The translations under genes and the position numbers were made by a program. 32,000 bases of DNA. Source: Candidatus Saccharimonadota bacterium. GTDB taxonomy: Bacteria; Patescibacteriota; Saccharimonadia; Saccharimonadales; Saccharimonadaceae. The notes under the pieces were generated by a model. That model did not search any database. It was given only the letters and a program-made list of their open reading frames with translations, and was not told the DNA's origin. Shown here one piece after another: positions 1,619 to 30,016 of this stretch (positions are counted from its first letter, which is position 1; each line of letters starts with the position of its first letter). The stretch covers positions 390,001 to 422,000 of the forward strand of contig MKSO01000001.1 in NCBI GenBank assembly GCA_001897305.1, given 5' to 3'.

Positions 1619-2523
1619 TATGAAAACACTCCTTCTCTAAAATAGTCAGAACAGTCGTAACTACCATCTTTAAATATACGTAGATATTCATAAGTATAGC
1701 GTGTTGGTATTGTTTCTGGTGGTACAAAAAACAGAGCCGTTGCTATCCCGTCGGCAATCATGGTACTGTCCGCTACAACCCAGGTGGCAATAATATCTTG
1801 GGCTGGTTTCGCAGTCCGCGCGTTAATAACGTGGTGCCATCCACCCCATGCTCTGCCTGTTGTTGCGGAGGCACAAAGCGCTTTATTGCGTAACTCAATG
1901 ACCCCAATTACTTTTGTTTTGTCGGTCGGATCTTGCAGGCCGATTGTTTCAAACGTCGTTGGGTCTGAGCTGGCCTGACGCACGTCACCGCTACCATCAA
2001 CTGCAAAATCGGTGAAGCCCTCGTCATGTAATAGCTCGCAAATAGCGTCTACTAAAAAACCTTTGCCAGCTGCGCCATAATCAAGCATAACCGGCTGTAG
2101 GGCAGTCAGAGTGGTACCCTTTCTTTGTATGGTCGCTGTATACGGGAGTGCAGGCTTCGGCGTTGCTTTAGGTTGCAAAGAATAGGTTGCGTCGTACCCC
2201 GCATCGGCAATGACGGTGCCAATTGTGGGTGTCACTATGCCTTGTGTGATCGCATCTAACTTTTCATACCATTCGAGCAATGGCAGTAGGTCGGGGTTAA
2301 GTTGTATTTTCGTTGCGTTGACGGCAAGCTGCGAAACCAGCGAATCGGGACGAAAGCGCGAAAGCTGATGGTCGAATGTATGTATGTACGAAGAGATGAT
2401 GTGTCTTGTTGCTTCAGGTATAGGCGTAGAAGTATTGATGAGCCATTGCGTACCGATTGCTTCGAACTGCCAACTATACTTTAGCGCTGTTTCTAATTTG
2501 TTCGAGGGCATCGTTAAATCCAC
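1618..2523 (-). CDS. apbE: FAD:protein FMN transferase (ApbE family)
   Basis: 301-aa ORF with ApbE-like blocks: FEAIGTQW near the N-terminus, GAAGKGFLVD, and SATTGRAWGGWHHVINARTAKP. It overlaps the upstream FMN-binding gene. An alternative start lies at 2511 (MPSNK). Confidence 0.8.
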   Translation of the reverse strand: MDLTMPSNKLETALKYSWQFEAIGTQWLINTSTPIPEATRHIISSYIHTFDHQLSRFRPDSLVSQLAVNATKIQLNPDLLPLLEWYEKLDAITQGIVTPTIGTVIADAGYDATYSLQPKATPKPALPYTATIQRKGTTLTALQPVMLDYGAAGKGFLVDAICELLHDEGFTDFAVDGSGDVRQASSDPTTFETIGLQDPTDKTKVIGVIELRNKALCASATTGRAWGGWHHVINARTAKPAQDIIATWVVADSTMIADGIATALFFVPPETIPTRYTYEYLRIFKDGSYDCSDYFREGVFS

Positions 2524-2956
2524 TTGAAGTTAGTGATGAGCCTGCGACACGAGAAAGAGAAATCTCCCCTACCGGCTTACCTACGACTTTTGATTTGTAG
2601 CTATTTGTGAATAGTGATTGGTATTCACGTGAGTCTCTGTTATTTGCAACGTTTTGAACTGAACTATCCGTAACGATGCCGTCCTTCAATGTAACTGTAA
2701 CAGTAATAGATTCTTGACCACCAGGAGTGATGTAGCTTCCCTCTTTTGTGTAGGTGCCGTCCTTATATTGAGCATTTGCGTCAGCGGCGGAGGTAGACGG
2801 CGTACTTGTACTGGACGTACTGCTCGTTTGGTTTGATATGGCGGTACTTTGTTGCGAGTCCTTATTTTTGTCCGCAAGTACGACAGCCCCAGCTGCAATA
2901 CCTAGGAGCACGACAATAACAAGTGCGGCCAGGGCCGGGTGTCTTTTTAATGGCAT
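2474..2956 (-). CDS. Membrane-anchored extracytoplasmic FMN-binding domain protein (likely ApbE substrate)
   Basis: 160-aa ORF with an AAGGA SD 5 nt upstream of the ATG. It has an N-terminal hydrophobic anchor, an S/T-rich linker and then an FMN_bind-like domain (YKDGTYT...ITVTVTL...). The C-terminal VAGSSLTSS aligns with the canonical flavinylation motif SGATxTS. Confidence 0.7.
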   Translation of the reverse strand: MPLKRHPALAALVIVVLLGIAAGAVVLADKNKDSQQSTAISNQTSSTSSTSTPSTSAADANAQYKDGTYTKEGSYITPGGQESITVTVTLKDGIVTDSSVQNVANNRDSREYQSLFTNSYKSKVVGKPVGEISLSRVAGSSLTSSGFNDALEQIRNSAKV

Positions 2957-3039
2957 ATATATCCTTTTTTTCTTATAGTACCTATGAGTATACGAATGAA
3001 AGCTGAAACATATCTGAGAATACCATTTTTTGTAGAGGG

Positions 3040-3053
3040 GTGATAATTATCAC
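3040..3053. promoter_or_regulatory. Perfect 14-bp palindrome GTGATAATTATCAC, a CRP/FNR-family-type operator candidate upstream of cyoA
   Basis: Exact inverted repeat. It reads GGTGA-N6-TCACA (9/10 to the CRP core TGTGA-N6-TCACA) and TGAT-N4-ATCA (FNR core). It is centred about 42 nt upstream of the cyoA ATG, with a TATTAT hexamer at 3075..3080. Confidence 0.45.
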
Positions 3054-3088
3054 AGTACTGCTAGCAATATGTAGTATTATAGAAGCAT

Positions 3089-4048
3089 ATGCGCAATAGC
3101 AAAAAACGGGTCTCTTGGAGGGTAGCTCAGGTTGTTATTTCAAGCCTTGTTGGGCTGGCTATTGTTGGCGCGTTTGTGTGGGCAACTCAAGGCCGTGATA
3201 TGCCAGTACTCAACCCTAAGGGTATAATTGCCGATCAGCAGCAAGTGCTTATTCTCATAACCGTTGGGTTGGGCGTTTTTGTGGTCGTTCCGGTATTTAT
3301 TTTGCTATTTGCTATCGCCTTTCGCTATCGCGTGGGGAACACCAAGGCAAAGTATGACCCCGAACTCGAAGGCAGTAAGGTGCTAGAAGCAGTATGGTGG
3401 GGTATTCCTTTAATAATTATTCTTATTTTGGCAATTATTACGGCCATATCCACCCATGCGCTCGACCCTTATAAAAAGATTGAATCGTCGACTGCGCCGG
3501 TGAAAGTGCAGGTAGTGGCTTTGCAATGGAAGTGGCTATTCATTTACCCCGATCAAGATATTGCGACGGTGAATTATCTGACCATCCCTGATAACACCCC
3601 TATCGAACTCTCTATTACTGCCGACGCGCCCATGAACTCCTTTTGGGTTCCGGCACTGGCTGGGCAAGTCTATGCCATGACAGGAATGTCAACGAAACTA
3701 AGCTTTATGGCGGATGCACCTGGTGAGTATCGAGGCGCCTCGGCGAATATTAGCGGCGAAGGTTCGGCAGATATGAGCTTTATGGTTCGTTCGGTCAGTA
3801 AGACGGATTTTTCTCACTGGCTCTACAAGTCTTCGTATAGCCCTAATATGTTGTCTTGGGATACTTACGAGAAGCTTGCTCAACCAAGTCGAGGTGATGG
3901 CGAGAAAACCTATGTCGTTACAGGTAAAGACCTATATAATCAGATTGTCATGAAATATATGGATTCCGGAAGCTCTTCACAGCCACATACTAATACACAG
4001 ACAGATCATACAATGAATGGTATGGATATGTCGGGGATGGGCATGTAA
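3089..4048 (+). CDS. cyoA: Cytochrome o/bo3-type quinol oxidase subunit II
   Basis: 319-aa ORF with two N-terminal TM helices. The block MNSFWVPALAGQVYAMTGMSTKL...ANISGEGSADMSF parallels E. coli CyoA ([23 protein letters not shown]...ASYSGPGFSGMKF). It lacks the CuA Cys/His ligands, so it is the quinol-oxidase type. The stop overlaps the cyoB start (TAATG). Confidence 0.88.
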   Translation: MRNSKKRVSWRVAQVVISSLVGLAIVGAFVWATQGRDMPVLNPKGIIADQQQVLILITVGLGVFVVVPVFILLFAIAFRYRVGNTKAKYDPELEGSKVLEAVWWGIPLIIILILAIITAISTHALDPYKKIESSTAPVKVQVVALQWKWLFIYPDQDIATVNYLTIPDNTPIELSITADAPMNSFWVPALAGQVYAMTGMSTKLSFMADAPGEYRGASANISGEGSADMSFMVRSVSKTDFSHWLYKSSYSPNMLSWDTYEKLAQPSRGDGEKTYVVTGKDLYNQIVMKYMDSGSSSQPHTNTQTDHTMNGMDMSGMGM

Positions 4049-6030
4049 TGATAGATCAAATTATGCAAACACTCTTTGGCCGCTTGACTCCTCAAGATTT
4101 TGTTCATGACCCAATCATGGCGGGCGCTGGCATTGCGATGGTTGGAGCGCTTATTCTGGCTATCGCTGCTGTTACCTTCTTTAAGAAATGGAAATGGTTA
4201 TGGCAGAATTGGATCACTTCGCTCGACCCTAAGAAGATCGGTATTATGTATATCATCGTTTCTATTATTATGTTGCTGCGTGGTTTTGGTGATGCGTTGC
4301 TTCTTCGAGCGCAACAAGTGGTGAACGATGCTAATGGGGTGGAAATACTCTCATCGGATCATTTCCAGCAAATCTTTTCAGCGCATGGTTCAATTATGAT
4401 TTTCTTCGTGGCAATGGGGCTGGTGTTTGGAGTATTTAATTTAATATTGCCACAACAATTAGGCTCGCGTGACGTCGCCTTTCCATTCCTAAACTCGGTC
4501 AGTTTCTGGTTGTTCTTTGCGGGTATGATTATTATCAATATGCCCCTTGTAGTTGGTGAATTCTCGAACGCCGGCTGGTTGGCGTATCCTCCACTATCGG
4601 GCTTACAGTATAACCCGGGTACGGGCGTCGACTACTGGATATGGAGCTTGCAGATTGCGGGTATCGGAAGTTTGCTATCGGGTATCAACTTTTTCGTGAC
4701 TATTTTAAAGATGCGCGCACCAGGTATGGGACTTATGAAAATGCCTATTTTCGCTTGGAGTGCTTTAGGTAGTACCGCGCTTATTATGTTCGCCTTCCCT
4801 ATTCTGACAGTAACATTAGCACTACTATCACTCGATCGTTTGATTGATACGAACTTCTTTACTACAACATTGGGCGGCAGTGCTATGTTGTACATTAACT
4901 TGATTTGGGCCTGGGGACACCCAGAAGTCTATATCCTTGTTCTTCCTGCTTTTGGAATATTTTCTGAAGTCGTGGCGACGTTCTCTGGTAAGAAATTGTT
5001 TGGCTACACATCAATGGTGCTGGCTATTATCGCCATCACTATTTTGTCCTTTACGGTATGGCTACACCACTTCTTTACCATGGGCGCAGGGGCGGACGTT
5101 AATACATTCTTTGGTATTATGACGATGATTATTGCTATACCTACGGGTGTTAAAGTGTTTAACTGGATTTTCACCATGTACCGAGGGCGCGTACGCTTCA
5201 CGACGCCAATGTTATGGTTTATGGGCTTTATTGTGACATTTACGATAGGTGGCTTAACAGGAGTTATGATGTCGGTTCCAGCGGCTGACTTTCAATTCCA
5301 TAACAGTCTCTTTTTAGTGGCTCACTTCCACAATATGATTGTCGGCGGTGTGTTATTCGGGGTATTTGCCGCCTTTACCTACTGGTTCCCTAAGTTTACC
5401 GGTTTCATGCTGAACGAGCGCCTTGGAAAAATGGCATTTTGGTCATGGCTGGTTGGGTTTATTCTGGCTTTCGGTCCGCTTTATATCCTTGGCTTTATGG
5501 GTGCGATCCGTCGCATGGACCACTACGACCCATCGCTTGGATGGCAGGGCCTGTTTATTGTGGCAGGTGTAGGTATTTTATTTATGGGCTTAGGCGTGCT
5601 GTTCCAGCTTGCACAAGTTGCTTATAGTATTTGGAAGCGCAAAGAACATGCTGTTGGCCCTGACCCATGGAATGCTCGAACATTAGAGTGGGCTACAGCT
5701 ACGCCGCCAGCCGAGTATGTCTTTGCGACTATTCCTACCGTTACGACTCGTGACGCCTTTTGGCAGATGAAGAAAGACCACAAGACAAACGATCGTCCAG
5801 AGCACTACGAGGACATTTGGCTGCCGAAGAATCGCTCGGAAGGTTTTATTGTTGGTATGGCCGCCTTGGTATTTGGCGCGGCTGTCGTCTGGCATATTTG
5901 GTGGCTGCTTATCGTGTCGTTGTTGATCGTTATTGTCGTACTTGTGGTCGCTTTAACTCGTGATGATACCGAAAAACGTATTCCGGCTGAAGAAATTGCC
6001 CGCGAAGAATTAAGGAGGGCAACCGTATGA
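4048..6030 (+). CDS. cyoB: Cytochrome o/bo3-type quinol oxidase subunit I (heme-copper oxidase catalytic subunit)
   Basis: 660-aa polytopic ORF with hallmark heme-copper oxidase blocks (WAWGHPEVYILVLPAFG, HHFFTMG, FLVAHFHNM). It is coupled to cyoA and cyoC by overlaps. Confidence 0.95.
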   Translation: MIDQIMQTLFGRLTPQDFVHDPIMAGAGIAMVGALILAIAAVTFFKKWKWLWQNWITSLDPKKIGIMYIIVSIIMLLRGFGDALLLRAQQVVNDANGVEILSSDHFQQIFSAHGSIMIFFVAMGLVFGVFNLILPQQLGSRDVAFPFLNSVSFWLFFAGMIIINMPLVVGEFSNAGWLAYPPLSGLQYNPGTGVDYWIWSLQIAGIGSLLSGINFFVTILKMRAPGMGLMKMPIFAWSALGSTALIMFAFPILTVTLALLSLDRLIDTNFFTTTLGGSAMLYINLIWAWGHPEVYILVLPAFGIFSEVVATFSGKKLFGYTSMVLAIIAITILSFTVWLHHFFTMGAGADVNTFFGIMTMIIAIPTGVKVFNWIFTMYRGRVRFTTPMLWFMGFIVTFTIGGLTGVMMSVPAADFQFHNSLFLVAHFHNMIVGGVLFGVFAAFTYWFPKFTGFMLNERLGKMAFWSWLVGFILAFGPLYILGFMGAIRRMDHYDPSLGWQGLFIVAGVGILFMGLGVLFQLAQVAYSIWKRKEHAVGPDPWNARTLEWATATPPAEYVFATIPTVTTRDAFWQMKKDHKTNDRPEHYEDIWLPKNRSEGFIVGMAALVFGAAVVWHIWWLLIVSLLIVIVVLVVALTRDDTEKRIPAEEIAREELRRATV

Positions 6031-6638
6031 GCCATCATAGCCCGATAGTGGACATTTCTCGCCAAAAAGCCGAACAAGAAACCTTACAGCGTAAATCAAT
6101 TGGCTTTTGGATCTACCTAATGACCGACTGTGTGTTGTTCGCCACGCTGTTTGCTGTTTTTGCCGTTTTGCGCCCCGGAACAGCTGGTGGACCGTCCGGC
6201 GCAGATATTTTTGACTTACCGTTTGTACTGGTTGAAACAATGGTGCTGCTCGTAAGTAGCTTTACGGTCGGGCTTGGTTTATTGGCGGCCCGCTATGGCT
6301 ACAAACGCCAAGCGATTGCCTGGTTGGTAGTGACTTTCTTGCTTGGTATCACTTTTCTTGTTATGGAGATATCTGAGTTTCGACACCTTATAGCCGAGGG
6401 CGATGGCTGGCAAAGAAGTGCGTTCTTATCGTCTTACTTTACTCTTGTAGCAACACACGGGTTGCACATTGCCGTGGGACTACTCTGGATGCTGGTTGTT
6501 ATTATTCGACTTATTCGGTTTAACTTTAAGCACACCGACCTTGGGCGATTGTCCTTGTTAAGTCTATTCTGGCACTTCCTTGATGTTATTTGGATCTTTA
6601 TCTTTTCGATCGTCTATCTTATGGGGAGTTTGTCATGA
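6027..6638 (+). CDS. cyoC: Quinol oxidase subunit III
   Basis: 203-aa, 5-TM ORF of the COX3/CyoC type (FWHFLDVIWIFIF near the C-terminus). It has ATGA overlaps with cyoB (6027..6030) and cyoD (6635..6638). Confidence 0.9.
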   Translation: MSHHSPIVDISRQKAEQETLQRKSIGFWIYLMTDCVLFATLFAVFAVLRPGTAGGPSGADIFDLPFVLVETMVLLVSSFTVGLGLLAARYGYKRQAIAWLVVTFLLGITFLVMEISEFRHLIAEGDGWQRSAFLSSYFTLVATHGLHIAVGLLWMLVVIIRLIRFNFKHTDLGRLSLLSLFWHFLDVIWIFIFSIVYLMGSLS

Positions 6639-7003
6639 AAAAACCTCAGCTAGAAACAAGGCACCATCATCCAGCGTACAAGTCGTATGTTGTGGGCTTT
6701 ATACTTTCTGTGATCACAACAGTAACTGCGTATTTCTTTGTCGTAAACAGACTATTACCTACTGAAGCGCTTATATATATAATCCTGATCCTAGCTATTA
6801 TTCAGCTCGTTGTGCAGATGGTTTTCTTCTTGCATATCGGCCGTGGGAGTCGCTGGAAAACACTTACCTTCGTCTTCACTTTGTTGGTGGTGCTTATTAT
6901 TGTCATTGGTACCTTATGGATTATGCATAATTTAGATTACAACATGATGCATATGTCGCCAGACGAAGTACACACCTACATGGAGCAGCACGAAGGCATT
7001 TAA
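6635..7003 (+). CDS. cyoD: Quinol oxidase subunit IV
   Basis: The ORF track starts at 6590, but the ATG at 6635 forms an ATGA overlap with the cyoC stop. That gives a 122-aa, 3-TM protein of CyoD size and topology (YVVGFILSVILT-like block). Confidence 0.8.
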   Translation: MKKPQLETRHHHPAYKSYVVGFILSVITTVTAYFFVVNRLLPTEALIYIILILAIIQLVVQMVFFLHIGRGSRWKTLTFVFTLLVVLIIVIGTLWIMHNLDYNMMHMSPDEVHTYMEQHEGI

Positions 7004-7869
7004 TGGAGAAACATACTCGCTCTTATGTGCAGCTTCTTAAGCCCGGTATTACCTTTAGCAATACTATTAGCGGCATCGCCGGGTTCTTTTTGGCGGCAAG
7101 TGTTGTTCCGTTTCAGTGGGCGGCGCTATTAGGCGTTGTAGTCGGTATTGCAGGGGTTATTGCTTCGGCCTGTGTCGTCAATAATGTGCTTGATCGCACT
7201 ATTGATAAGCGCATGAAACGTACGGCTAAACGTGACGTTGCGAGTGGAGCTATTAGGGTTCGCTATGCGCTTGTGTACGCAGCCCTGTTAGGTGTGGTTG
7301 GGTTTACAGCCTTAGCTGCCTTAACGAACGCGTTAACAGTATGGCTCGGTGTCCTAGCGTACGTGTGGTACATCGTTGTGTATGGCATTGCAAAGCGTAC
7401 AACGGCTTACAGCACGGTTATTGGTGGGGTTGCTGGTGCATTGCCACCAGTAGCTGGCTATACTGCCCTTACAAATCAGGTTGATCTGGCGGGCGTTGTG
7501 CTCTTTCTTATTCTCTTCTTTTGGCAACTCCCCCATTTTTATGCCATCGCTATGTTTAGGAGGGATGATTACGCTAAGGCAAAGTTGCCTGTATGGTCGG
7601 TTCGGTTCGGTATGCAAAATACCAAAGTGCAGATTTTCGTGTCGGTGCTTTTCTATGCATTTGCCGCTTCACTTCTGAGCTTCTTTGGGTATACGGGCAT
7701 TATATATCTCGTACTAAGCAGCGCGCTTTCGGTGTATTGGATATATACCGGTATTCGCCTTTATAGAAAGGTAGATGATGTCAAATGGGCTCGTTCTATG
7801 TTTGGTGTGTCACTCGTGGTGCTGCTCGCTATGTGCGTGCTGATCTCTATTGGCGGCTATTTAGCATAA
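7003..7869 (+). CDS. cyoE: Protoheme IX farnesyltransferase (heme O synthase)
   Basis: 288-aa UbiA-family prenyltransferase (NNVLDRTIDKRMKRT, FFWQLPHFYAIA). TAATG overlap with the cyoD stop. Confidence 0.92.
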   Translation: MEKHTRSYVQLLKPGITFSNTISGIAGFFLAASVVPFQWAALLGVVVGIAGVIASACVVNNVLDRTIDKRMKRTAKRDVASGAIRVRYALVYAALLGVVGFTALAALTNALTVWLGVLAYVWYIVVYGIAKRTTAYSTVIGGVAGALPPVAGYTALTNQVDLAGVVLFLILFFWQLPHFYAIAMFRRDDYAKAKLPVWSVRFGMQNTKVQIFVSVLFYAFAASLLSFFGYTGIIYLVLSSALSVYWIYTGIRLYRKVDDVKWARSMFGVSLVVLLAMCVLISIGGYLA

Positions 7870-7870
7870 G

Positions 7871-8149
7871 GTGTATACTAGCAGTATGATTATTCTTATA
7901 CATGTACTTATTGCTATTGCTAGCGTTGCTATAGCGACGGCAACTTTCGCAAAACCATCAATCAAAAAGTTGGGAGTAAGTTACGCATTTATCGTTGCAA
8001 CAGTTGGCAGCGGTACGTACCTGCTGCTTACAAGTTCAGGTAATATTCTTAAAAGCTGCCTTGTAGGGCTTGCCTACGTGACAGCTGTAAGTATCGTCAC
8101 AATTGCGACGCATACCCGAGTTCGCCGCCAGGCTAACCAAGAGCTTTAA
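7871..8149 (+). CDS. Small 3-TM membrane protein of unknown function, last gene of the oxidase cluster
   Basis: 92-codon ORF starting at a GTG 1 nt after the cyoE stop (alternative ATG at 7886). It is strongly hydrophobic with a basic C-terminus. I recognise no family. Confidence 0.5.
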   Translation: MYTSSMIILIHVLIAIASVAIATATFAKPSIKKLGVSYAFIVATVGSGTYLLLTSSGNILKSCLVGLAYVTAVSIVTIATHTRVRRQANQEL

Positions 8150-8165
8150 AGGCTCTTGGCTTTTT
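8137..8165. terminator. Terminator hairpin spanning the overlapping 3' ends of two convergent genes
   Basis: CCAAGAGC (8137..8144), loop TTTAAAG, then GCTCTTGG (8152..8159), a perfect 8-bp stem. It is followed by C-TTTTT on the plus strand. Both stop codons (TAA at 8147..8149 on plus, TAA at 8148..8146 on minus) lie in the loop. Confidence 0.6.
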
Positions 8166-9348
8166 CGCTGTCTTTGTCGGTATTGTATTCTGCTAGCCAA
8201 GTATCTTCTTGGCTCTCGGTTTGCGTACGCCAGGCTATGTACGCTTTATTGAATGGCAGGATGTCTTTGTAGCCTACAAAATCGGCTGCTTCACGAATAA
8301 GGCTTCCGAGTACACCAGATATACGGAGCCACTTATACTCGAACAGGGCCCAATGCTTGCCAACTGGAATAACAACCGGTACCACCTTAGCATTTAGCTT
8401 TTTGGTAGATTGACGGAGGATTTGTTTAGCAACATACTGGCCGTCGCGAACGGCAGTTTGAGCCAAGCCTCCAAAGGCGGTAATGGCGTTATCACCAATG
8501 ACGTATACATGGGGGTCGACGCGCAAATGGCCATCAACAACCACTCGCCCATTTGGCGCTAAAGTAAATTGGCTCTCGTTAGCCTTAAAGAACGGGCTAT
8601 TCGCTACACCCGACGTCCATACGACAGTGTGACTTTGGATTGCCCGGCCATTCACAATAAGGCTATCGGCAGTGGCCTCTTCAACTTTCTTATTTGTTTC
8701 AACGTGTACCCCAAGCTTTTTAAGCCGCTTTTCGATAGTAGCGCTTGCCTTCTCGGACATGCGAGGCATCACACGAGGCGCAGCTTCGATAATGCTGATA
8801 GTTGGGTGAGGTTGCGGGTGGCCATATTTCTTTTTTAAGTATTGCAAGTAAGAGCCCAGTGCCGAGGCGAGCTCAACGCCCGTTGGGCCGGCGCCAATAA
8901 TAAGAAAATGACTGTCGGCACCATGCGCTTTTGAGAAACTCCGCAAAAGGTGTTGCTTTAAGTGGGTAATTTCTTCAAGCGATTTTACGCCATAGGTGTA
9001 TTGGTCGAGGCCAGGAATGCCAAAATACGTCGTAACTGAGCCAAGGGCCAGAATGAGTGTCTGATATTGGTGTGTGACACCTGTACTCGTGCCGATTGTT
9101 TTCGCCTGGCGATCTATGGTTGTGACGGTATCAATAATGATTTCAACGTTTTCATAGTCGGCAAAAATTTCCCCTAAAGGTATCCATGACTGCCTATAAC
9201 TCCCGCCCGTAGCGGTGCTATAGAGGGCCGGATAGTATTGAAAATCAAGTTTATCACTAATAAGGGTAACGCGTGCCCTTTTATGTTTTGCAATTTCGAG
9301 CGCAGCCTTAACGCCACCAAATCCACCACCTACAACCGTTACGTGCAT
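8146..9348 (-). CDS. ndh: Type II NADH dehydrogenase (NDH-2, FAD-dependent pyridine nucleotide-disulfide oxidoreductase)
   Basis: Two Rossmann motifs (VTVVGGGFGGV and FLIIGAGPTGVELA) plus VYVIGDNA. I chose the start at ATG 9348 (MHVTVVGGG...) because AGGA lies 7 nt upstream. The ORF track extends to 9417. Confidence 0.88.
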   Translation of the reverse strand: MHVTVVGGGFGGVKAALEIAKHKRARVTLISDKLDFQYYPALYSTATGGSYRQSWIPLGEIFADYENVEIIIDTVTTIDRQAKTIGTSTGVTHQYQTLILALGSVTTYFGIPGLDQYTYGVKSLEEITHLKQHLLRSFSKAHGADSHFLIIGAGPTGVELASALGSYLQYLKKKYGHPQPHPTISIIEAAPRVMPRMSEKASATIEKRLKKLGVHVETNKKVEEATADSLIVNGRAIQSHTVVWTSGVANSPFFKANESQFTLAPNGRVVVDGHLRVDPHVYVIGDNAITAFGGLAQTAVRDGQYVAKQILRQSTKKLNAKVVPVVIPVGKHWALFEYKWLRISGVLGSLIREAADFVGYKDILPFNKAYIAWRTQTESQEDTWLAEYNTDKDSEKAKSL

Positions 9349-9382
9349 AGTCGTATCCTGTTTATGTTTCAAATATATCTGT

Positions 9383-9411
9383 ATGATAGACTGGAATCTT
9401 CTGATATGCAA
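9383..9411 (-). promoter_or_regulatory. Sigma-70-like promoter for ndh
   Basis: The minus strand reads TTGCAT (9411..9406), a 17-nt spacer, then TATCAT (9388..9383), about 35 nt upstream of the ndh ATG. Confidence 0.5.
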
Positions 9412-9533
9412 TACCACTTATCTATACTCTTATATAAAAGTACACATGAGTGACGCCGAAGCGCCTTGCAGGAGCGCTCTCTAGCTGGGTGCTAGATACT
9501 CACTGCAAGACGCCTCGGCTAGGCACATCTTAT

Positions 9534-10991
9534 TCAGTTGTTGGAGGAGGCGCGGCGCCGTGTGTAGCGGACGGCCAGGATGATCAAGCCAGCCATGACC
9601 AGGCCGGCGCCGACGATCCAGATCATCGTCACCAGGCCACCATCCATACCTGTGTTCGGCAGGGACCCACCACCCTTCGGCGGAATGGGCCCGGACGTTG
9701 CACTGCTGGTCGGTGAACCGGTCGGGCTCGGCGTAGCCGTGGGAGATGCCGTGGGAGATGCCGTCGGTGATGGCGTTCCCGTGGGGCTCGCGGTCGGCGA
9801 CGGGGTTGTCGTCGGCGTAGCCGTGGGGGTGGGCGTCGCGGTCGGGCTCGGCGTAGCGGTGGGAGATGTCGTCGGTGACGGCGTGTTCGAACCCGTTGGT
9901 GACGGGCTGGGCGACGTGGTGGTTGTGCCACATGTCAGGGTGCCCAAGAACGGGTAGTGGTGCTGTTCACCGATGTTGGTGATGTTCAGCGACCCGGCGA
10001 TGATCTGCCCCTCGATGTTGTTGGTGATGTTCACCTTCAACGAGCCGTTGGGCGCGAAGAACGTTCCCTGCATCAGACTGTTGGTCTGTAGGGTGACGTT
10101 CGTGCCCAGGTTCCAGAGCAAGCCAGCCAGACCGGCTCGCTTGTCACCGTTGACCAGGACGTTGTTCGGTTGAAGCGTTCCGTTGCCGGTGACGTTGATC
10201 ACCAGCGGGTGCGAGGCGCTCGGGTTGACGCCGTTGTAGAAGCTGATCTCGGCGATCGAGTTCAGCTCGGCAACCGACACTGTCCAGATGTTCTGTGAAA
10301 CCGACGGGTCGAGTTCGACGCGGATCTTCTTGCCTGCTAGGCTGCCGCCCACAGGGATGACCTTGTCGCTGTTGTCGATGTCGTGCAGCTTCAGTCCGTC
10401 CGTGGTCGGCTGGGTCGCCAGGCAGCTGTTCAGCTGCTTGAAGCGCGTCAGCGCATCACCGAAGACGTCGTTGAAGACGCCGGGGGCTTGCAGGCTGTTG
10501 ATGGCCTGGTCGCCGCCGTTGACGAAGATGCGTGGTGTGCTGTTGATGTCGGCTCCGGCGACGGTGATCGCCCGGTTGGTGCCGTTGGCCTGCATCTGCA
10601 GACCGGCCGCATTACCCAGGTAGACATGACCGCCGTTGTTGATCATCATGGTGCCCGACGAATCGCCGAGCACCACTGTTCCACCAGCGAGCAGACCCAC
10701 CCGCGAATCCCCCGGGATCGACCCGAGGTCTTGGGCTTGGCCGACTCCCCAGCGGAAGCTGTTGAAGCGGACGTCGCCACCGACGGCAGCCGCGCCTTCG
10801 CTCTCGTTGCCCGAGAAGTAGGCGTTGCCTTCGACGATGGTGTCGAAGCCGTGGCTGTCCTGTGCGAAGTTCACCGAGTTCGGTGTCGCAGTGGGCGCTG
10901 CCAGGGCGGCGTTGGTGGATGCGATTCCCAGACCGGCCAGAAGACCGGCGGTGATCACGATCGTGATCCCGTTAGCGGAGAGCTTTTTCAA
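9534..10991 (-). CDS. Secreted LPXTG cell-wall-anchored surface protein. The N-terminal domain resembles the choice-of-anchor A family and is followed by a Pro/Thr/Ser stalk.
   Basis: TTG start 9 nt downstream of AAGGAGG (11001..11007). Sec signal peptide (MKKLSANGITIVITAGLLAGLGIASTNAALA|AP). About 320 aa are rich in G/N/V, with NESEGAAAVGGDVRF. The sorting signal is LPNTG (9648..9662), a hydrophobic helix and RYTRRRASSNN. Third codon positions are strongly G/C-biased. Confidence 0.85.
   Translation of the reverse strand: MKKLSANGITIVITAGLLAGLGIASTNAALAAPTATPNSVNFAQDSHGFDTIVEGNAYFSGNESEGAAAVGGDVRFNSFRWGVGQAQDLGSIPGDSRVGLLAGGTVVLGDSSGTMMINNGGHVYLGNAAGLQMQANGTNRAITVAGADINSTPRIFVNGGDQAINSLQAPGVFNDVFGDALTRFKQLNSCLATQPTTDGLKLHDIDNSDKVIPVGGSLAGKKIRVELDPSVSQNIWTVSVAELNSIAEISFYNGVNPSASHPLVINVTGNGTLQPNNVLVNGDKRAGLAGLLWNLGTNVTLQTNSLMQGTFFAPNGSLKVNITNNIEGQIIAGSLNITNIGEQHHYPFLGTLTCGTTTTSPSPSPTGSNTPSPTTSPTATPSPTATPTPTATPTTTPSPTASPTGTPSPTASPTASPTATPSPTGSPTSSATSGPIPPKGGGSLPNTGMDGGLVTMIWIVGAGLVMAGLIILAVRYTRRRASSNN
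9708..9926 (-). repeat. Coding low-complexity/tandem-repeat tract (Pro-Thr-Ser stalk)
   Basis: Encodes about 73 aa of (S/T)PT(A/G)(S/T)P-type repeats. At the DNA level, GTCGGGCTCGGCGTAGCCGTGGGAGATG (9721..9748) recurs at 9841..9868 with 1 mismatch. A 12-nt unit (CCGTGGGAGATG) is tandemly duplicated at 9737..9760. Confidence 0.85.
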
Positions 10992-11161
10992 GGCTCACCA
11001 CCTCCTTAACTGTAGATGTGAATGTGCGAGGCTTTCCGTTTAGGGCATGGCGGGTACGTACGCCGTCATGTCAAGAAAGCCAATGTGTACAAAGAGGCCT
11101 TGTGGGCAATAACACACAATGAATAGTTATATCATAAAAATAACAAAAAGTCACGCTTTAC

Positions 11162-11190
11162 TGGACACGGTAACATGTTTGTGCTATAAT
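11162..11190 (+). promoter_or_regulatory. Strong sigma-70-like promoter (extended -10) for the DEAD-box helicase gene
   Basis: TGGACA (11162..11167), a 17-nt spacer, then TG-C-TATAAT (TATAAT at 11185..11190). This implies a 5' UTR of about 145 nt before ATG 11342. Confidence 0.6.
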
Positions 11191-11341
11191 GAAGATATTG
11201 CATCCGAATGGATACCGCTATGGTCTTCAGGGGTTTGGTTCTGTCCTCTCCCGTATTGAAACTGAAGTATTTAAGGTACTCGCTGTTCGTCTGCAGCGAA
11301 AACATATTCTAAAGTAACCCCAGAAAGGGGCATTTGCCATT

Positions 11342-12583
11342 ATGGCCTATCAAAATTCTACTTCAAATCGTAACCGTTCAGCACGCCCTAGCGGCAATCG
11401 TCCAGGCGTTCGCTCGTTCCGCCCTGGTAAGGGTCCTCGTACTGGTGGCTCAAAACAGCGTCGTGGCGCGTATATTCACCCAAGCAAGTTTATTAATAAA
11501 GCGACTATCTTGCCGGGTGAAGAAGCTCCATACGAGCCAACTCACCTCTTTACAGACTTTAATTTCGTTCCCGCTTTGCAAAAGAACATCGACCACAAGG
11601 GCTACGTTAAGCCAAGTGCTATACAAGACCAGTCTATCGCTTTAACTATGCAAGGCCACGATGTTATTGGCTTGGCAAATACTGGTACGGGTAAAACCGC
11701 CGCTTTCTTGTTGCCTATTATTGACGCGCTGTATGCTAATCGTGATCTAAATTCGGTGCTTATTGTGGCCCCAACCCGCGAACTTGCTCAGCAAATTGAT
11801 GAACAATTCCGTGATTTCTCATACAACATGAAACTCTACTCGACGCTCATTGTTGGTGGGACGAACATGGATCGTCAAATCCGCCAGCTACAGCGAGGAC
11901 CCCATGTTATTATCGGTACTCCGGGTCGTCTTATGGACCTCGTTAAACGCGGAAACCTTAAACTTGATGCCGTTAAAACACTTGTACTCGATGAAGCTGA
12001 CCGCATGCTTGATATGGGCTTTATTAATGACATTCGTACGCTTGTTTCTAAAACACCAAGCGACCGTCAAACCCTTTTCTTCAGTGCTACGATTACCCCT
12101 TCTATTGCCGAACTTACCAAAGAGTTTTTGAATAACCCGCAAACTGTCTCGGTGCGTACCGCTGATACTAGCGATCGCGTAGACCAAGATATTGTTGAGG
12201 CTTCTGGTAAAGAAGAGAAACTCGAAACACTATTAAACCTTCTTTCAAATGAAGAGTTTGAAAAAGTATTAGTTTTCGGTGAAACCAAGTTTGGTGTTCA
12301 GCGCTTGTCTGACCACCTTGATAAAAGCGGTGTTGCTTCGGTGGCTATTCATGGTAATAAGTCACAATCACAGCGTCAGCGTGCTCTAAATGCCTTTAAG
12401 GACAATAAAGTACGCGTAATGGTGGCAACTGATGTTGCGGCCCGTGGCCTCGATATACCTAATGTTAGCCACGTTATTAACTTCGACCAACCTGCTACCT
12501 ACGAAGACTACGTTCACCGTATTGGTCGTACTGGCCGCGGTGGTGCGACCGGTAAAGCACTTACCTTCGTCGACAAGCGCTAA
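11342..12583 (+). CDS. DEAD-box ATP-dependent RNA helicase with an Arg/Gly-rich N-terminal extension
   Basis: 413 aa. Motifs: Q (PSAIQ), I (ANTGTGKT), II (DEAD), III (SAT) and VI (HRIGRTGRGG). Confidence 0.93.
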   Translation: MAYQNSTSNRNRSARPSGNRPGVRSFRPGKGPRTGGSKQRRGAYIHPSKFINKATILPGEEAPYEPTHLFTDFNFVPALQKNIDHKGYVKPSAIQDQSIALTMQGHDVIGLANTGTGKTAAFLLPIIDALYANRDLNSVLIVAPTRELAQQIDEQFRDFSYNMKLYSTLIVGGTNMDRQIRQLQRGPHVIIGTPGRLMDLVKRGNLKLDAVKTLVLDEADRMLDMGFINDIRTLVSKTPSDRQTLFFSATITPSIAELTKEFLNNPQTVSVRTADTSDRVDQDIVEASGKEEKLETLLNLLSNEEFEKVLVFGETKFGVQRLSDHLDKSGVASVAIHGNKSQSQRQRALNAFKDNKVRVMVATDVAARGLDIPNVSHVINFDQPATYEDYVHRIGRTGRGGATGKALTFVDKR

Positions 12584-28594: not shown

Positions 28595-30016
28595 CTACTG
28601 ACGCGTGATCATATACCAACGGTCCGCCAGGTCGGCGCGTGAATTGGTAATAATGCGTGTAATCGTATACCCGTCGGTATTCTTCCAGGCATCGTGAGAT
28701 ACGACCGCAGTAGGTTTGGTGAGGGTTGTGGTAACTTGAAGGTTTTTTTCGTACTTTGCCACGGCCTTGTAAAATGGATACTCTTCGTTACTTACGACTA
28801 TGGTTGTATTCTCGGGAAGGAGTGCTAAGTCGGTTGAAAACAATGGCGCAACGTTAGGACTGTAATGATAGCCGTAGCCATACCGTACAAGCCCAGTGGT
28901 CAATAAGATGCCTACAAGAAGTACAATTGGTACCAGTCCGGCAATACGAGCGTAAGGATTAAGTGGGAAGAGGCGGTACCAGTATCCAATAAGTGAAGTG
29001 AGTCCAGCAGCAAGCATTAGCACGGATGGTACAAATGTTACTGAGGTAAATGACGGGTTGAGTAGTAGAACTGGGATAAGACAAATAAACCAGAATATAA
29101 TCAGATAACTGCGTGTTGTCTCTCGGGTTCTAATAAGTCGGTAGATACCAAGAACGATCAAAAGGGCCGAGCCAAGCCCAAAGACTGGTGTCATAAGTTC
29201 GGTTGCGCTTGGCTCCCAGAACAAGAAGTACTGCTTGAGAACAATTATAGCGTTTGCGCCCAAGTCTGGAGGCCAGCTCGTTGGAACACCAAGTAATGCG
29301 AGCCCAAGCTGAGGTGAGCTAATGCATAGTAAGACAAGTGGTGTGATTATAGCTAGAAATATAACGGTAACGATGCTAAGCCGTACTTTTGATAGGCGTC
29401 GTACGATGCTGCGTAAGTGCGGATGAAGAACCATAGCTAAAACAATTGCAATTAATGGGTAGACGCTGAGCGGAGTATAAAGACTTAGCCCAGCTACGAT
29501 TGCAAATAGTATTTTCCATAAGAAACGCCATTTTTTGCCGCGTGTAATTTGCGTACCAAGCAGTAATAGAAGAATTGGCCAAAAAATGTAGAGCACACTT
29601 GGTGTGCCTGATTGTGCAATAAAAAGGAACTGACCCGTCGAGATGGCAATAAGCGATGCGAGCACGGCAATATTCGGTTTAAACCATCGTCGGAGTAATA
29701 GCACGAGCCCAATAGCAGAAAGAAGCGCCAAAATAAGCGATGGCAATTTTATGGTAAAAATACTGACACCGAACACGGCAAAAATACCAGCCTGAAATGC
29801 ATAATACGGCAAGTTCGTAATTGCTAGACTTGAAGTATCGCTCAGCGAGAGGCTGGCGGCACGAACCACTGATCTTGTTTCAGCCGCAGATAGTGCCCCC
29901 GGTAAATAAAAGCCAGCAAAGATGAGTAACGCGGTTAAGAGTAAGCCAATAAGGCCGTATCCAATAACGTAGCGGTGGCGATATAAAAAGTATTTTGAAA
30001 AATCACGTGTAGCCAT
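28595..30016 (-). CDS. Polytopic membrane protein, possibly a GT-C fold glycosyltransferase (GT39/ArnT-like)
   Basis: 473 aa with about 11-12 hydrophobic helices and a C-terminal soluble domain of about 90 aa. The architecture resembles GT-C enzymes, but I could not identify a diagnostic catalytic motif. The coding call is strong and the function is tentative. Confidence 0.5.
   Translation of the reverse strand: MATRDFSKYFLYRHRYVIGYGLIGLLLTALLIFAGFYLPGALSAAETRSVVRAASLSLSDTSSLAITNLPYYAFQAGIFAVFGVSIFTIKLPSLILALLSAIGLVLLLRRWFKPNIAVLASLIAISTGQFLFIAQSGTPSVLYIFWPILLLLLGTQITRGKKWRFLWKILFAIVAGLSLYTPLSVYPLIAIVLAMVLHPHLRSIVRRLSKVRLSIVTVIFLAIITPLVLLCISSPQLGLALLGVPTSWPPDLGANAIIVLKQYFLFWEPSATELMTPVFGLGSALLIVLGIYRLIRTRETTRSYLIIFWFICLIPVLLLNPSFTSVTFVPSVLMLAAGLTSLIGYWYRLFPLNPYARIAGLVPIVLLVGILLTTGLVRYGYGYHYSPNVAPLFSTDLALLPENTTIVVSNEEYPFYKAVAKYEKNLQVTTTLTKPTAVVSHDAWKNTDGYTITRIITNSRADLADRWYMITRQ

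Follow-up and report, generated by a model that had tools for sequence, protein, structure and literature searches.

The 32-kb stretch of DNA analyzed here (the window; contig MKSO01000001.1 of a Candidatus Saccharimonadota genome) harbors a GC-rich segment with one gene for a putative wall-anchored adhesin, referred to as the adhesin in the following, which lies between ndh, coding for a type II NADH dehydrogenase, and the gene of a DEAD-box RNA helicase. Measured in 200-nt windows, the GC content rises from 0.44 (9300-9499) to 0.63-0.715 (9500-10899) and drops to 0.41 (11000-11199). This agrees with the sharp GC island at 9447-11070 described in the original prediction, which was made from the sequence alone; the segment with these borders has a GC content of 0.629 compared to 0.466 in the remainder of the window. 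The inserted DNA is wider than this segment: homology to sister genomes that do not carry the adhesin ends at 9388-9397 and resumes at 11164-11180, the insert abutting the helicase promoter. The GC content of third codon positions (GC3) is 0.813 in the adhesin gene vs. 0.386-0.518 in the 24 other genes of the window, which bears out the earlier remark that these positions are unlike those of all neighbors. Enrichment is seen for codons ending in G as well as for those ending in C (AAG 8/9, CAG 11/15, CTG 19/32, ATC 24/24), and the codon preferences are inverted relative to the host genome and resemble those of a high-GC genome. As predicted, the adhesin gene is the single real gene of the segment and is preceded by AAGGAGG at 11001-11007; the long open reading frames (ORFs) on the opposite strand merely result from the GC richness. 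The features of the locus are the following:

9398-11178, minus strand: whole inserted cassette (~1.78 kb); homology to three sister genomes (L102, L104, L106) breaks here
8146-9348, minus strand: left flank, type II NADH dehydrogenase gene ndh (Pyr_redox_2, GC3 0.465), adjoining a cytochrome bo oxidase operon
11342-12583, plus strand: right flank, DEAD-box RNA helicase gene, with promoter at 11162-11190 and conserved leader at 11179-11341
9534-10991, minus strand: adhesin gene, 485 aa, TTG start at 10989-10991, GC 0.636, GC3 0.813
10899-10991, minus strand: Sec-type signal peptide, aa 1-31 (...NAALA/AP), from inspection of the translation, no dedicated predictor being used
9942-10856, minus strand: choice-of-anchor A / pAdhesive_15 passenger domain, aa 46-350, from PF20597, TIGR04215 and AlphaFold
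9663-9935, minus strand: Pro/Thr/Ser-rich (P/T/S) stalk, aa 353-443 (~90 aa), from the translation, with imperfect 12-36-nt repeats
9537-9662, minus strand: sortase sorting signal with LPNTG (9648-9662), hydrophobic segment and RYTRRR tail, read directly
9455-9519, minus strand: extended hairpin directly after the stop codon, with a 17-bp outer, 4-bp middle and 6-bp inner stem and a 5-nt loop
10992-11126, minus strand: conserved 5' leader, four blocks of which are shared by cassette types A and B (see below)
11127-11137, minus strand: putative AT-rich extended -10 promoter element, TATGATATAAC on the gene strand

The N-terminal architecture of the adhesin is kept in its orthologue on contig L098 from a sister lineage and in the homologues P0002 and P0003. 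The passenger domain belongs to the choice-of-anchor A (CAA) family, as had been guessed: TIGR04215 (choice_anch_A) matches with 100 bits (cutoff 29) over profile positions 2-255 of 255, and PF20597 (pAdhesive_15, "ice-binding-like adhesive domain") matches residues 46-345 with E = 2.8e-31 and 109.8 bits (cutoff 23.8) over profile positions 5-254 of 254. CAA domains are found in surface-anchored bacterial proteins and in proteins of diatom adhesive trails, their exact function being still undefined (bioRxiv 10.1101/2023.03.06.531300). With its signal-peptide-like N-terminus and its LPNTG signal, the adhesin also has the terminal features expected in this family, the C-terminal sorting signals of which may be LPXTG, PEP-CTERM or T9SS. 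The AlphaFold model of the passenger domain (pLDDT 80, pTM 0.85; low confidence in region 113-138) is a beta-solenoid plus one long helix. In a Foldseek comparison with the PDB, the top 30 matches of this model were all DUF3494 ice-binding proteins (probability 0.97-1.00, target-normalised TM 0.43-0.60, rmsd 8-12 Å, sequence identity 7-13%). The likeness is at the level of the fold only, PF11999 (DUF3494) giving no match to the adhesin in a Pfam scan at E <= 1.

The stalk, for which a length of ~75 aa had been given, measures ~90 aa, and its repeats fall into families D1, D2 and D4 of the repeat scan. It is followed by LPNTG at aa 444-448, ~26 mostly hydrophobic residues and RYTRRR. For the sortase signal of the original prediction this means that motif, hydrophobic segment and tail are present, while the generic LPXTG model TIGR01167 scores under its cutoff (13.5 vs. 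15.9 bits, E = 0.09). This model is very short, and the motif-level LPXTG criterion carries more weight than the near miss. Relatives bear LANTG. Judged from these sequence features, a function as wall-anchored adhesin or as mimicry factor is plausible. In addition, positions 28595-30016 of the window encode a PMT_2-family glycosyltransferase (PF13231, E = 1.3e-9). PMT_2-type enzymes O-mannosylate Pro/Thr-rich linkers in Actinobacteria, and it is pure speculation that the stalk might be a substrate of this enzyme.

Related cassettes and their conserved control regions

A search with the full-length adhesin was swamped by the P/T stalk and was repeated with the passenger domain only, using HMMER against 1.84 billion representatives standing for ~15 billion proteins. 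The collection includes the reactor assemblies holding the segment and the co-occurring Microbacterium. Among these representatives only P0002 (55% identical) scored better than 1e-30, and no donor-like sequence with more than ~35% identity was found outside contexts resembling those in the Candidate Phyla Radiation (CPR) among the ~15 billion proteins. More distant relatives are scattered across several phyla, and those with a name comprise type IX secretion system (T9SS) proteins of Bacteroidota (Roseivirga, Siphonobacter) and proteins of Arthrobacter, Streptomyces and Salinispora. Sorting signals were recognized in 66 of 159 relatives, being LAxTG-type in 43 and LPxTG-type in 23. A scan of JGI metagenomes with a profile of the subfamily added only three more loci, and the family is rare. 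In plasmid and phage records no relative of the adhesin was found; a plasmid or phage vector was rejected for want of a matching record. Three types of cassette can be distinguished:

Type A: window and L098
Type B: P0003 on L008 and a variant on L109, 41-42% identical to type A
Type C: P0002 on L009, 55% identical to type A; a type-IV-pilin-like gene follows, as in L008

Type B (L008, L109) is located divergently upstream of the same DEAD-box helicase, on a contig that also encodes pilins and a VirB4-like ATPase. With 75% identity to the helicase of the window, that of L008 groups within the Saccharimonadales radiation. GC is elevated in each of the three types, at 0.63-0.64 for the gene and with a GC3 of 0.74-0.81, vs. 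0.46-0.65 for their neighbors. The subfamily has so far been seen only in Saccharimonadales-like contexts, with control regions of native style. The original prediction had regarded the gene as derived from the host of an epibiont. This was not borne out, as the collection contained nothing donor-like and the relatives with 41-55% identity occur only on CPR/Saccharimonadales-like contigs. Closest homologues within the same lineage at similar GC, which that prediction had itself named as an outcome speaking against a transfer, were found by half.

The non-coding parts of the cassette are conserved as well. An alignment of the upstream regions revealed that ATGATATAA, which falls within insert-specific DNA, is invariant in types A, B and C, and an AT-rich extended -10 element TGATATAAT is common to types A and B and partly to type C. 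The promoter region of the cassette has a GC content of ~21%. Within the leader, the blocks TTGCCCACAAGGC (11097-11109), a palindrome GGCGTACGTACCCGCC (about 11049-11066; of the form GGCG-GTACGTAC-CGCC) and CACATCTA, which is followed by the ribosome binding site (RBS) AAGGAGGTGGT at 10997-11007, are kept between type A (window, L098) and type B (L008, L109), the proteins of which are only 41% identical, and are partly present in type C. In ~0.9 Mb of DNA from related loci these leader motifs co-occur solely at adhesin cassettes, and no Rfam family was matched by the cassette or its flanks. A promoter with ~21% GC that is common to cassettes with 41% protein identity makes separate fresh imports from a donor with 65-71% GC hard to reconcile. 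The sequence comparison implies that Saccharimonadales-type genomes would have harbored the cassette already before it split into types A, B and C.

The hairpin at the 3' end of the gene has a folding energy of -49.4 kcal/mol (z = -6.2), which none of 200 shuffled sequences reached. Hairpins of the same build and ~65 nt length, with other sequence, are present in types B (L008, z = -7.5) and C (L009, z = -7.2), the folding energies across the three types being -48 to -49 kcal/mol. A T-run follows the hairpin of type C, as in a terminator. The architecture was seen only at adhesin cassettes in a partial ViennaRNA scan, which left out the window and L098-L109. The hairpin might act as terminator or as mRNA stabiliser.

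Concerning the translation start, a CTG is found 8 nt past the conserved AAGGAGGTGG in type B (L008 about 9956-10003; L109 about 1137-1193), which is probably the start codon instead of the called GTG/ATG further downstream. The longer N-terminus supplies NHATKQLTTRRKA, the kind of basic n-region to be expected in a signal peptide, and non-ATG starts seem to be typical of the cassette (TTG in type A, CTG in type B).

Further sortase-related genes were observed at sister loci. L011 encodes at 212-2863 a Cys-containing surface protein of 884 aa ending with LAFTG, a transmembrane (TM) segment and RRR (GC3 0.72). L012 encodes a 773-aa homologue of it at 112-2430 and next to it a GC-elevated sortase gene at 2390-3148. 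These islands have a GC content of 0.61-0.63 vs. 0.47-0.49 and are located a few kb upstream of the same helicase. The large surface protein has no Pfam match. The L012 sortase is divergent: it matches PF04203 with 33.6 bits (cutoff 26.6), scores far under the cutoffs of classes E and F and has no sequence match in the PDB. Sortases and sorted proteins have been reported in TM7 genomes (PMC3812714). Every sortase substrate recognized in these loci is compositionally atypical, and the broader idea that the sortase machinery might be of foreign, monoderm high-GC origin is kept alive.

The ndh-helicase slot in sister genomes

The helicase places the window in Saccharimonadales, in line with the earlier assignment to a Saccharibacteria genome. 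The best species-representative genomes have helicases with 67-71% identity, and closer metagenomic relatives reach 97%, one at 89% being named Ca. Microsaccharimonas. In ~80 loci of species-representative genomes (best helicase 71%), which are too distant to be informative, neither adhesin nor ndh was found beside the helicase. The rest of the window is core genome, encoding DnaB, RecR, CysRS, a two-component system and cytochrome bo oxidase with adjacent NDH-2.

The exact adhesin protein is encoded on 11 contigs of independent ENA, JGI and Logan assemblies with the same helicase and ndh flanks, one of these contigs being 1.3 Mb long. The exact ndh and helicase proteins occur in more than 100 assembly blocks, and 11.2 kb of the DNA are identical in further assemblies of 0.2-0.9 Mb. 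In many assemblies (L090, L093, L094 and L097 among them) the adhesin is not called despite identical DNA, which is a gene-calling artefact; an apparent presence/absence polymorphism was rejected, the underlying DNA being identical. Several public gene-calling pipelines miss the adhesin because its composition differs from that of the genome used for training the gene finder. Pipelines that skip it call opposite-strand ORFs of 208, 90 and 42 aa instead, and the same call sets shorten COX4 (97 vs. 122 aa) and COX3 (196 vs. 203 aa).

The order cox-ubiA-ndh / X / helicase is kept in the closer relatives, and the occupant X of the slot varies:

L098-L100 (helicase 97% identical): X is the adhesin orthologue
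L102 (helicase 89% identical), 6217-6813: X is an unrelated 198-aa multi-pass membrane protein of native GC
L104/L105 (helicase 86% identical): X is empty, 235-nt intergenic region; 57 nt replace the 1.78 kb
L106 (helicase 84% identical), 6325-6771: X is a 148-aa ORF, GC-elevated (GC3 0.73)

In a neighbor-joining tree of the helicase, an adhesin at this site is confined to the terminal clade of window and L098. The slot behaves as an insertion hot spot. Comparison of this locus in sister genomes had been proposed along with the original prediction, and the empty ndh-helicase site of a close sister (L104/L105) shows that the cassette was gained, the intergenic slot being a variable one. Both native promoters had been placed next to the insert: that of the helicase (11162-11190) was recovered in a promoter scan with 11/12 matches, and that assigned to ndh (9383-9411) stayed below the threshold of the scan. 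The window contains no tRNA gene, the domain matches of its proteins include no integrase, sortase or recombinase, and a repeat scan found no direct repeats flanking the insert, all of which agrees with the reported lack of integrase, tRNA and target duplication. Targeting by a diversity-generating retroelement and phase variation were considered as well, and neither a reverse transcriptase nor a template repeat is present in the window.

Several further observations concern the surroundings of the slot. In L008, a small GC-rich ORF for a 67-aa membrane protein (9445-9648) lies between the helicase and the type-B adhesin. L098 carries a second GC-rich single-gene island at 5025-5753 (243 aa, GC3 0.80) between the RrnaAD methyltransferase gene and an 83-aa ORF; the protein has no Pfam or NCBIfam match and no counterpart in the window. 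The 5' leader of the helicase gene is strongly conserved (window 11179-11341; L104 6872-7000; L109 519-557). A 39-nt block of it, TTGTGCTATAAT..GCATCCGAATGGATACCG, is 92-97% identical across lineages in which coding DNA is ~73-86% identical, and the last 81 nt before the helicase start are 95% identical to L098 and contain the small hairpins CGCTG..CAGCG and CCCC..GGGG. Rfam gave no match to this leader, which may be a regulatory 5' untranslated region. On the other side of the slot, positions 3089-9417 comprise an operon for a cytochrome bo-type oxidase (COX2, COX1, COX3, COX4, UbiA) together with NDH-2, all of native composition. The arrangement is kept in L102, L104 and L106, is absent beside the helicase in ~80 more distant CPR loci and was also found in the TM7 genome RAAC3 by Kantor et al. 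(PMC3812714).

With respect to the assemblies, the locus is part of a contig of 1,304,966 bp (L001/L092, ENA ERZ27263107 k141_96361), other assemblies of the organism having 915-916 kb; the long contig may be concatenated or chimeric, or the shorter scaffolds may be incomplete. Two JGI contigs from another sample with 99.4% identity differ from the window at few positions clustered at contig ends. L107 has an 8-nt insertion in the signal-peptide region (window 10941), and L108 has a 6-nt insertion with clustered substitutions in the passenger domain (10212-10261), near the contig end. These variants could be real microdiversity or assembly errors.

Divergence between lineages and origin of the cassette

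TTG start and upstream region are shared by the L098 orthologue, the passenger domain of which is 89% identical, with a nucleotide identity of 86%. This divergence of 14% shows that the gene predates, or moved between, the two lineages. With a synonymous divergence (dS) of 0.41 and a non-synonymous divergence (dN) of 0.085 between window and L098 for an orthologue at the same site, the very recent transfer that had been proposed is not supported. For comparison, the amino-acid identity of housekeeping proteins between window and L098 is 90.5% for PLD and 77% for RrnaAD. The difference at fourfold sites between window and L098 is as follows:

adhesin: 0.33 (95% bootstrap 0.25-0.39)
helicase: 0.45
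CYTH: 0.55
ATPase: 0.60
PLD: 0.64
RrnaAD: 0.70

In an independent type-B pair the respective values are 0.21 for the adhesin vs. 0.58 for the helicase. The synonymous divergence of the adhesin is two- to five-fold below that of the flanks in two independent lineage pairs. Moreover, it forms a gradient centred on the cassette, with 0.11 at residues 281-350 and 0.28 at the 5' end of the adhesin gene, 0.35-0.46 along the helicase and 0.38-0.64 in PLD. The synonymous changes in the adhesin gene are ordinary GC<->AT transitions (46/60) rather than G<->C changes only. Types B and C being saturated, no outgroup is close enough to polarise the substitutions for a test of amelioration. Because the cassette is younger than its flanks, the divergence data suggest as simplest reading that it was exchanged between related lineages by recombination after their split. 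The competence genes ComEC and DprA have been reported in TM7 genomes (PMC3812714).

The explanation that we consider somewhat favored is that of an adhesin cassette that is accessory and mobile by horizontal transfer, belongs ultimately to a high-GC monoderm type and now circulates within Saccharimonadales. The cassette would be a single-gene unit in a Saccharimonadales genome near Ca. Microsaccharimonas, equipped with its own promoter, a leader of ~120-150 nt, a strong RBS, a TTG start and a 3' hairpin. Its insertion, with neither an integrase nor a duplicated target involved, would have placed it between the divergently oriented promoters of ndh and the helicase and would date to the common ancestor of the two sampled lineages or close to it, DNA uptake followed by recombination being the probable route. 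The protein would be exported by Sec, cut by a sortase at LPNTG and joined to the cell wall, the ~90-aa P/T/S stalk holding out a CAA beta-solenoid with a fold like that of ice-binding proteins, which would most likely serve as adhesin for a surface or for the envelope of a host cell. An ultimately actinobacterial-type origin is plausible, on the basis of the high-GC monoderm codon usage and the Streptomyces-type architecture.

Several points weigh against this explanation. A GC3 of 0.74-0.84 is held across types that share only 41-55% of their amino acids, and simple transfer with subsequent amelioration does not explain this persistence. It may be due to selection or to biased gene conversion, each of which could also reduce dS with no exchange involved. 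The L098 contig breaks inside the stalk region, leaving its left junction unseen, several key contigs are short (L009 2.8 kb, L109 2.6 kb), and the phylogenetic marker is the helicase, in a neighbor-joining tree of this single gene. Furthermore, the high-GC monoderm origin is suggested by composition and architecture and not by a donor sequence, and the relatives at ~30% identity include T9SS proteins of Bacteroidota. Finally, a sortase was seen only at the sister locus L012, none being encoded in the window or its flanks.

Alternatively, the adhesin might belong to a long-resident surface-protein family of Saccharimonadales that is inherited mainly vertically with repeated loss, its GC-rich codons being upheld by codon or mRNA selection or by GC-biased gene conversion; we regard this as possible, although unlikely. 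Were the GC codons maintained in this way, the lasting high GC3 as well as the low divergence at synonymous sites would follow with no need for a recent transfer. This fits with the GC3 of the three deeply diverged types, which is high whatever the GC content of the host genome, with the conserved promoter, leader and 3' hairpin of native style, with the helicase-proximal position shared by types A and B, with the low dS in both independent pairs and with the elevated GC of other sortase-substrate genes near the helicase and of a sortase (L011, L012). The distribution is patchy, however, the nearest outgroups having an empty site or unrelated occupants, and the GC3 excess of +0.35 far exceeds the usual effects of codon selection or GC-biased gene conversion. 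Moreover, TTG and probably CTG starts argue against very high expression, the synonymous changes are mostly GC<->AT rather than only G<->C, and the divergence follows a gradient along the locus instead of being uniformly reduced. Something like selection or GC-biased conversion nevertheless seems to be needed for the lasting GC richness of types A, B and C.

It is improbable that the gene passed very recently and directly to the epibiont from its actinobacterial host and has not ameliorated since, which would make the protein a host-derived adhesin or mimicry factor. Such a transfer was suggested by the high-GC codon usage, by an LPXTG anchor and a Pro/Thr stalk like those of the Streptomyces, Arthrobacter and Salinispora homologues and by the absence of the cassette from close sisters. 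However, its GC3 of 0.81 is lower than expected for a genome with 71% GC, the orthologue of the sister lineage differs at 14% of its nucleotides, and the ~15 billion proteins searched, including those of the assemblies holding the segment, contain nothing above ~35% identity outside CPR-like contexts. Moreover, a high-GC donor is an unlikely source of the AT-rich extended -10 promoter and leader common to Saccharimonadales cassettes with 41% identity. For thiocyanate bioreactors, co-occurrence predicts Microbacterium (bins of ~71% GC) as host of a Saccharibacterium, which fits with such a transfer (PMC8061750, PMC8406219, PMC10409787). Going by the names of the samples, the window may stem from this Saccharibacterium.

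A site-specific cassette system, integron-like or similar, with the conserved 3' hairpin as recombination site, is very improbable. A single-gene unit ending with an imperfect palindrome of ~65 nt in all three types and a slot filled by different single genes in different lineages would be in agreement with it. Against it, neither the 32-kb window nor the flanks of related loci were found to contain an integrase, inspection of the hairpin ends did not reveal GTTRRRY / RYYYAAC core sites, and the cassette has its own promoter. Furthermore, the other occupants of the slot have no such hairpin, the partial scan finding the architecture only at adhesin cassettes, and the type C hairpin with its T-run resembles a terminator. 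An assembly chimera or contamination of the bin with actinobacterial DNA, which had been listed for checking and for which the sharp composition step alone speaks, has a negligible probability in view of the exact protein with the same flanks on the 11 independent contigs (one of 1.3 Mb), the 11.2 kb of identical DNA in other assemblies (0.2-0.9 Mb), the occurrence of an orthologue at this site in a different lineage from different samples and the AT-rich promoter and leader contiguous with the gene.

Comparison with known systems and significance for Saccharimonadales

The CAA proteins of Actinomycetota (Streptomyces, Salinispora, Arthrobacter) resemble the adhesin in a domain scoring above the curated cutoffs and in GC-rich codon usage. 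Those of Streptomyces and Salinispora have the same order of signal peptide, CAA domain, P/T/S stalk, L[AP]xTG, TM segment and basic tail within 430-520 aa. In contrast, the adhesin is only 25-35% identical to them and is encoded in a CPR genome of 47% GC behind an AT-rich promoter and a conserved leader. With the DUF3494 ice-binding proteins of the IBP-1 fold (FfIBP 4NU2, Shewanella 6BG8, TisAFP 5B5H) it shares the beta-solenoid with a long flanking alpha-helix, and it differs from them by an identity of 7-13%, the lacking PF11999 match and its wall anchor; nothing points to ice binding in this bioreactor organism. The Trailins of diatoms likewise combine a CAA domain with P/T/S-rich regions in an adhesive context and are a precedent for the spread of CAA domains by horizontal gene transfer, in that case from bacteria, although they are eukaryotic secreted proteins without membrane or wall anchor (bioRxiv 10.1101/2023.03.06.531300). 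An integron gene cassette differs by its attC core sequences, which the adhesin cassette lacks along with an integrase in the window, and the adhesin cassette has its own promoter. Among the features by which horizontally acquired islets are recognized, deviant composition and codon usage as well as absence from the orthologous site of close relatives were found, whereas mobility hallmarks in the window and an identifiable donor lineage were not.

Saccharibacteria are epibionts that rely on surface structures to bind their actinobacterial hosts, and a study on their type IV pili proposes additional cell-surface adhesins acting at close range (PMC11623550). In comparison to the known routes of attachment, the role of the adhesin is read from its sequence. 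In the literature searched, no description of a CAA-type sortase substrate as adhesin of Saccharibacteria was found. Lineage-specific gene gain is documented for the arginine deiminase system of Saccharibacteria (PMC8764695).

The adhesin family keeps high-GC codons in genomes of 47-56% GC despite deep divergence and evolves more slowly at synonymous sites than its neighbors, a puzzle that bears on amelioration, recombination and selection in reduced genomes. Owing to the failure of gene calling, surveys of CPR surface proteins may systematically miss such genes. The attachment of ultrasmall epibiotic CPR bacteria to their hosts is little understood beyond type IV pili, and the adhesin, a rare accessory protein with a beta-solenoid and a putative wall anchor that closely related Saccharimonadales gain, lose and apparently exchange, is a concrete candidate for a factor of close-range attachment or host range. 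It is conceivable, although rather unlikely, that Saccharimonadales keep and exchange a dedicated adhesin cassette, consisting of a regulated leader, a GC-rich coding sequence and a 3' structure, by natural transformation and recombination, its host-like (actinobacterial) codon composition being actively preserved or refreshed time and again. If true, the cassette would be a shared mobile determinant of host attachment or host range, maybe within a wider class of GC-rich sortase/substrate islands such as those of L011 and L012.

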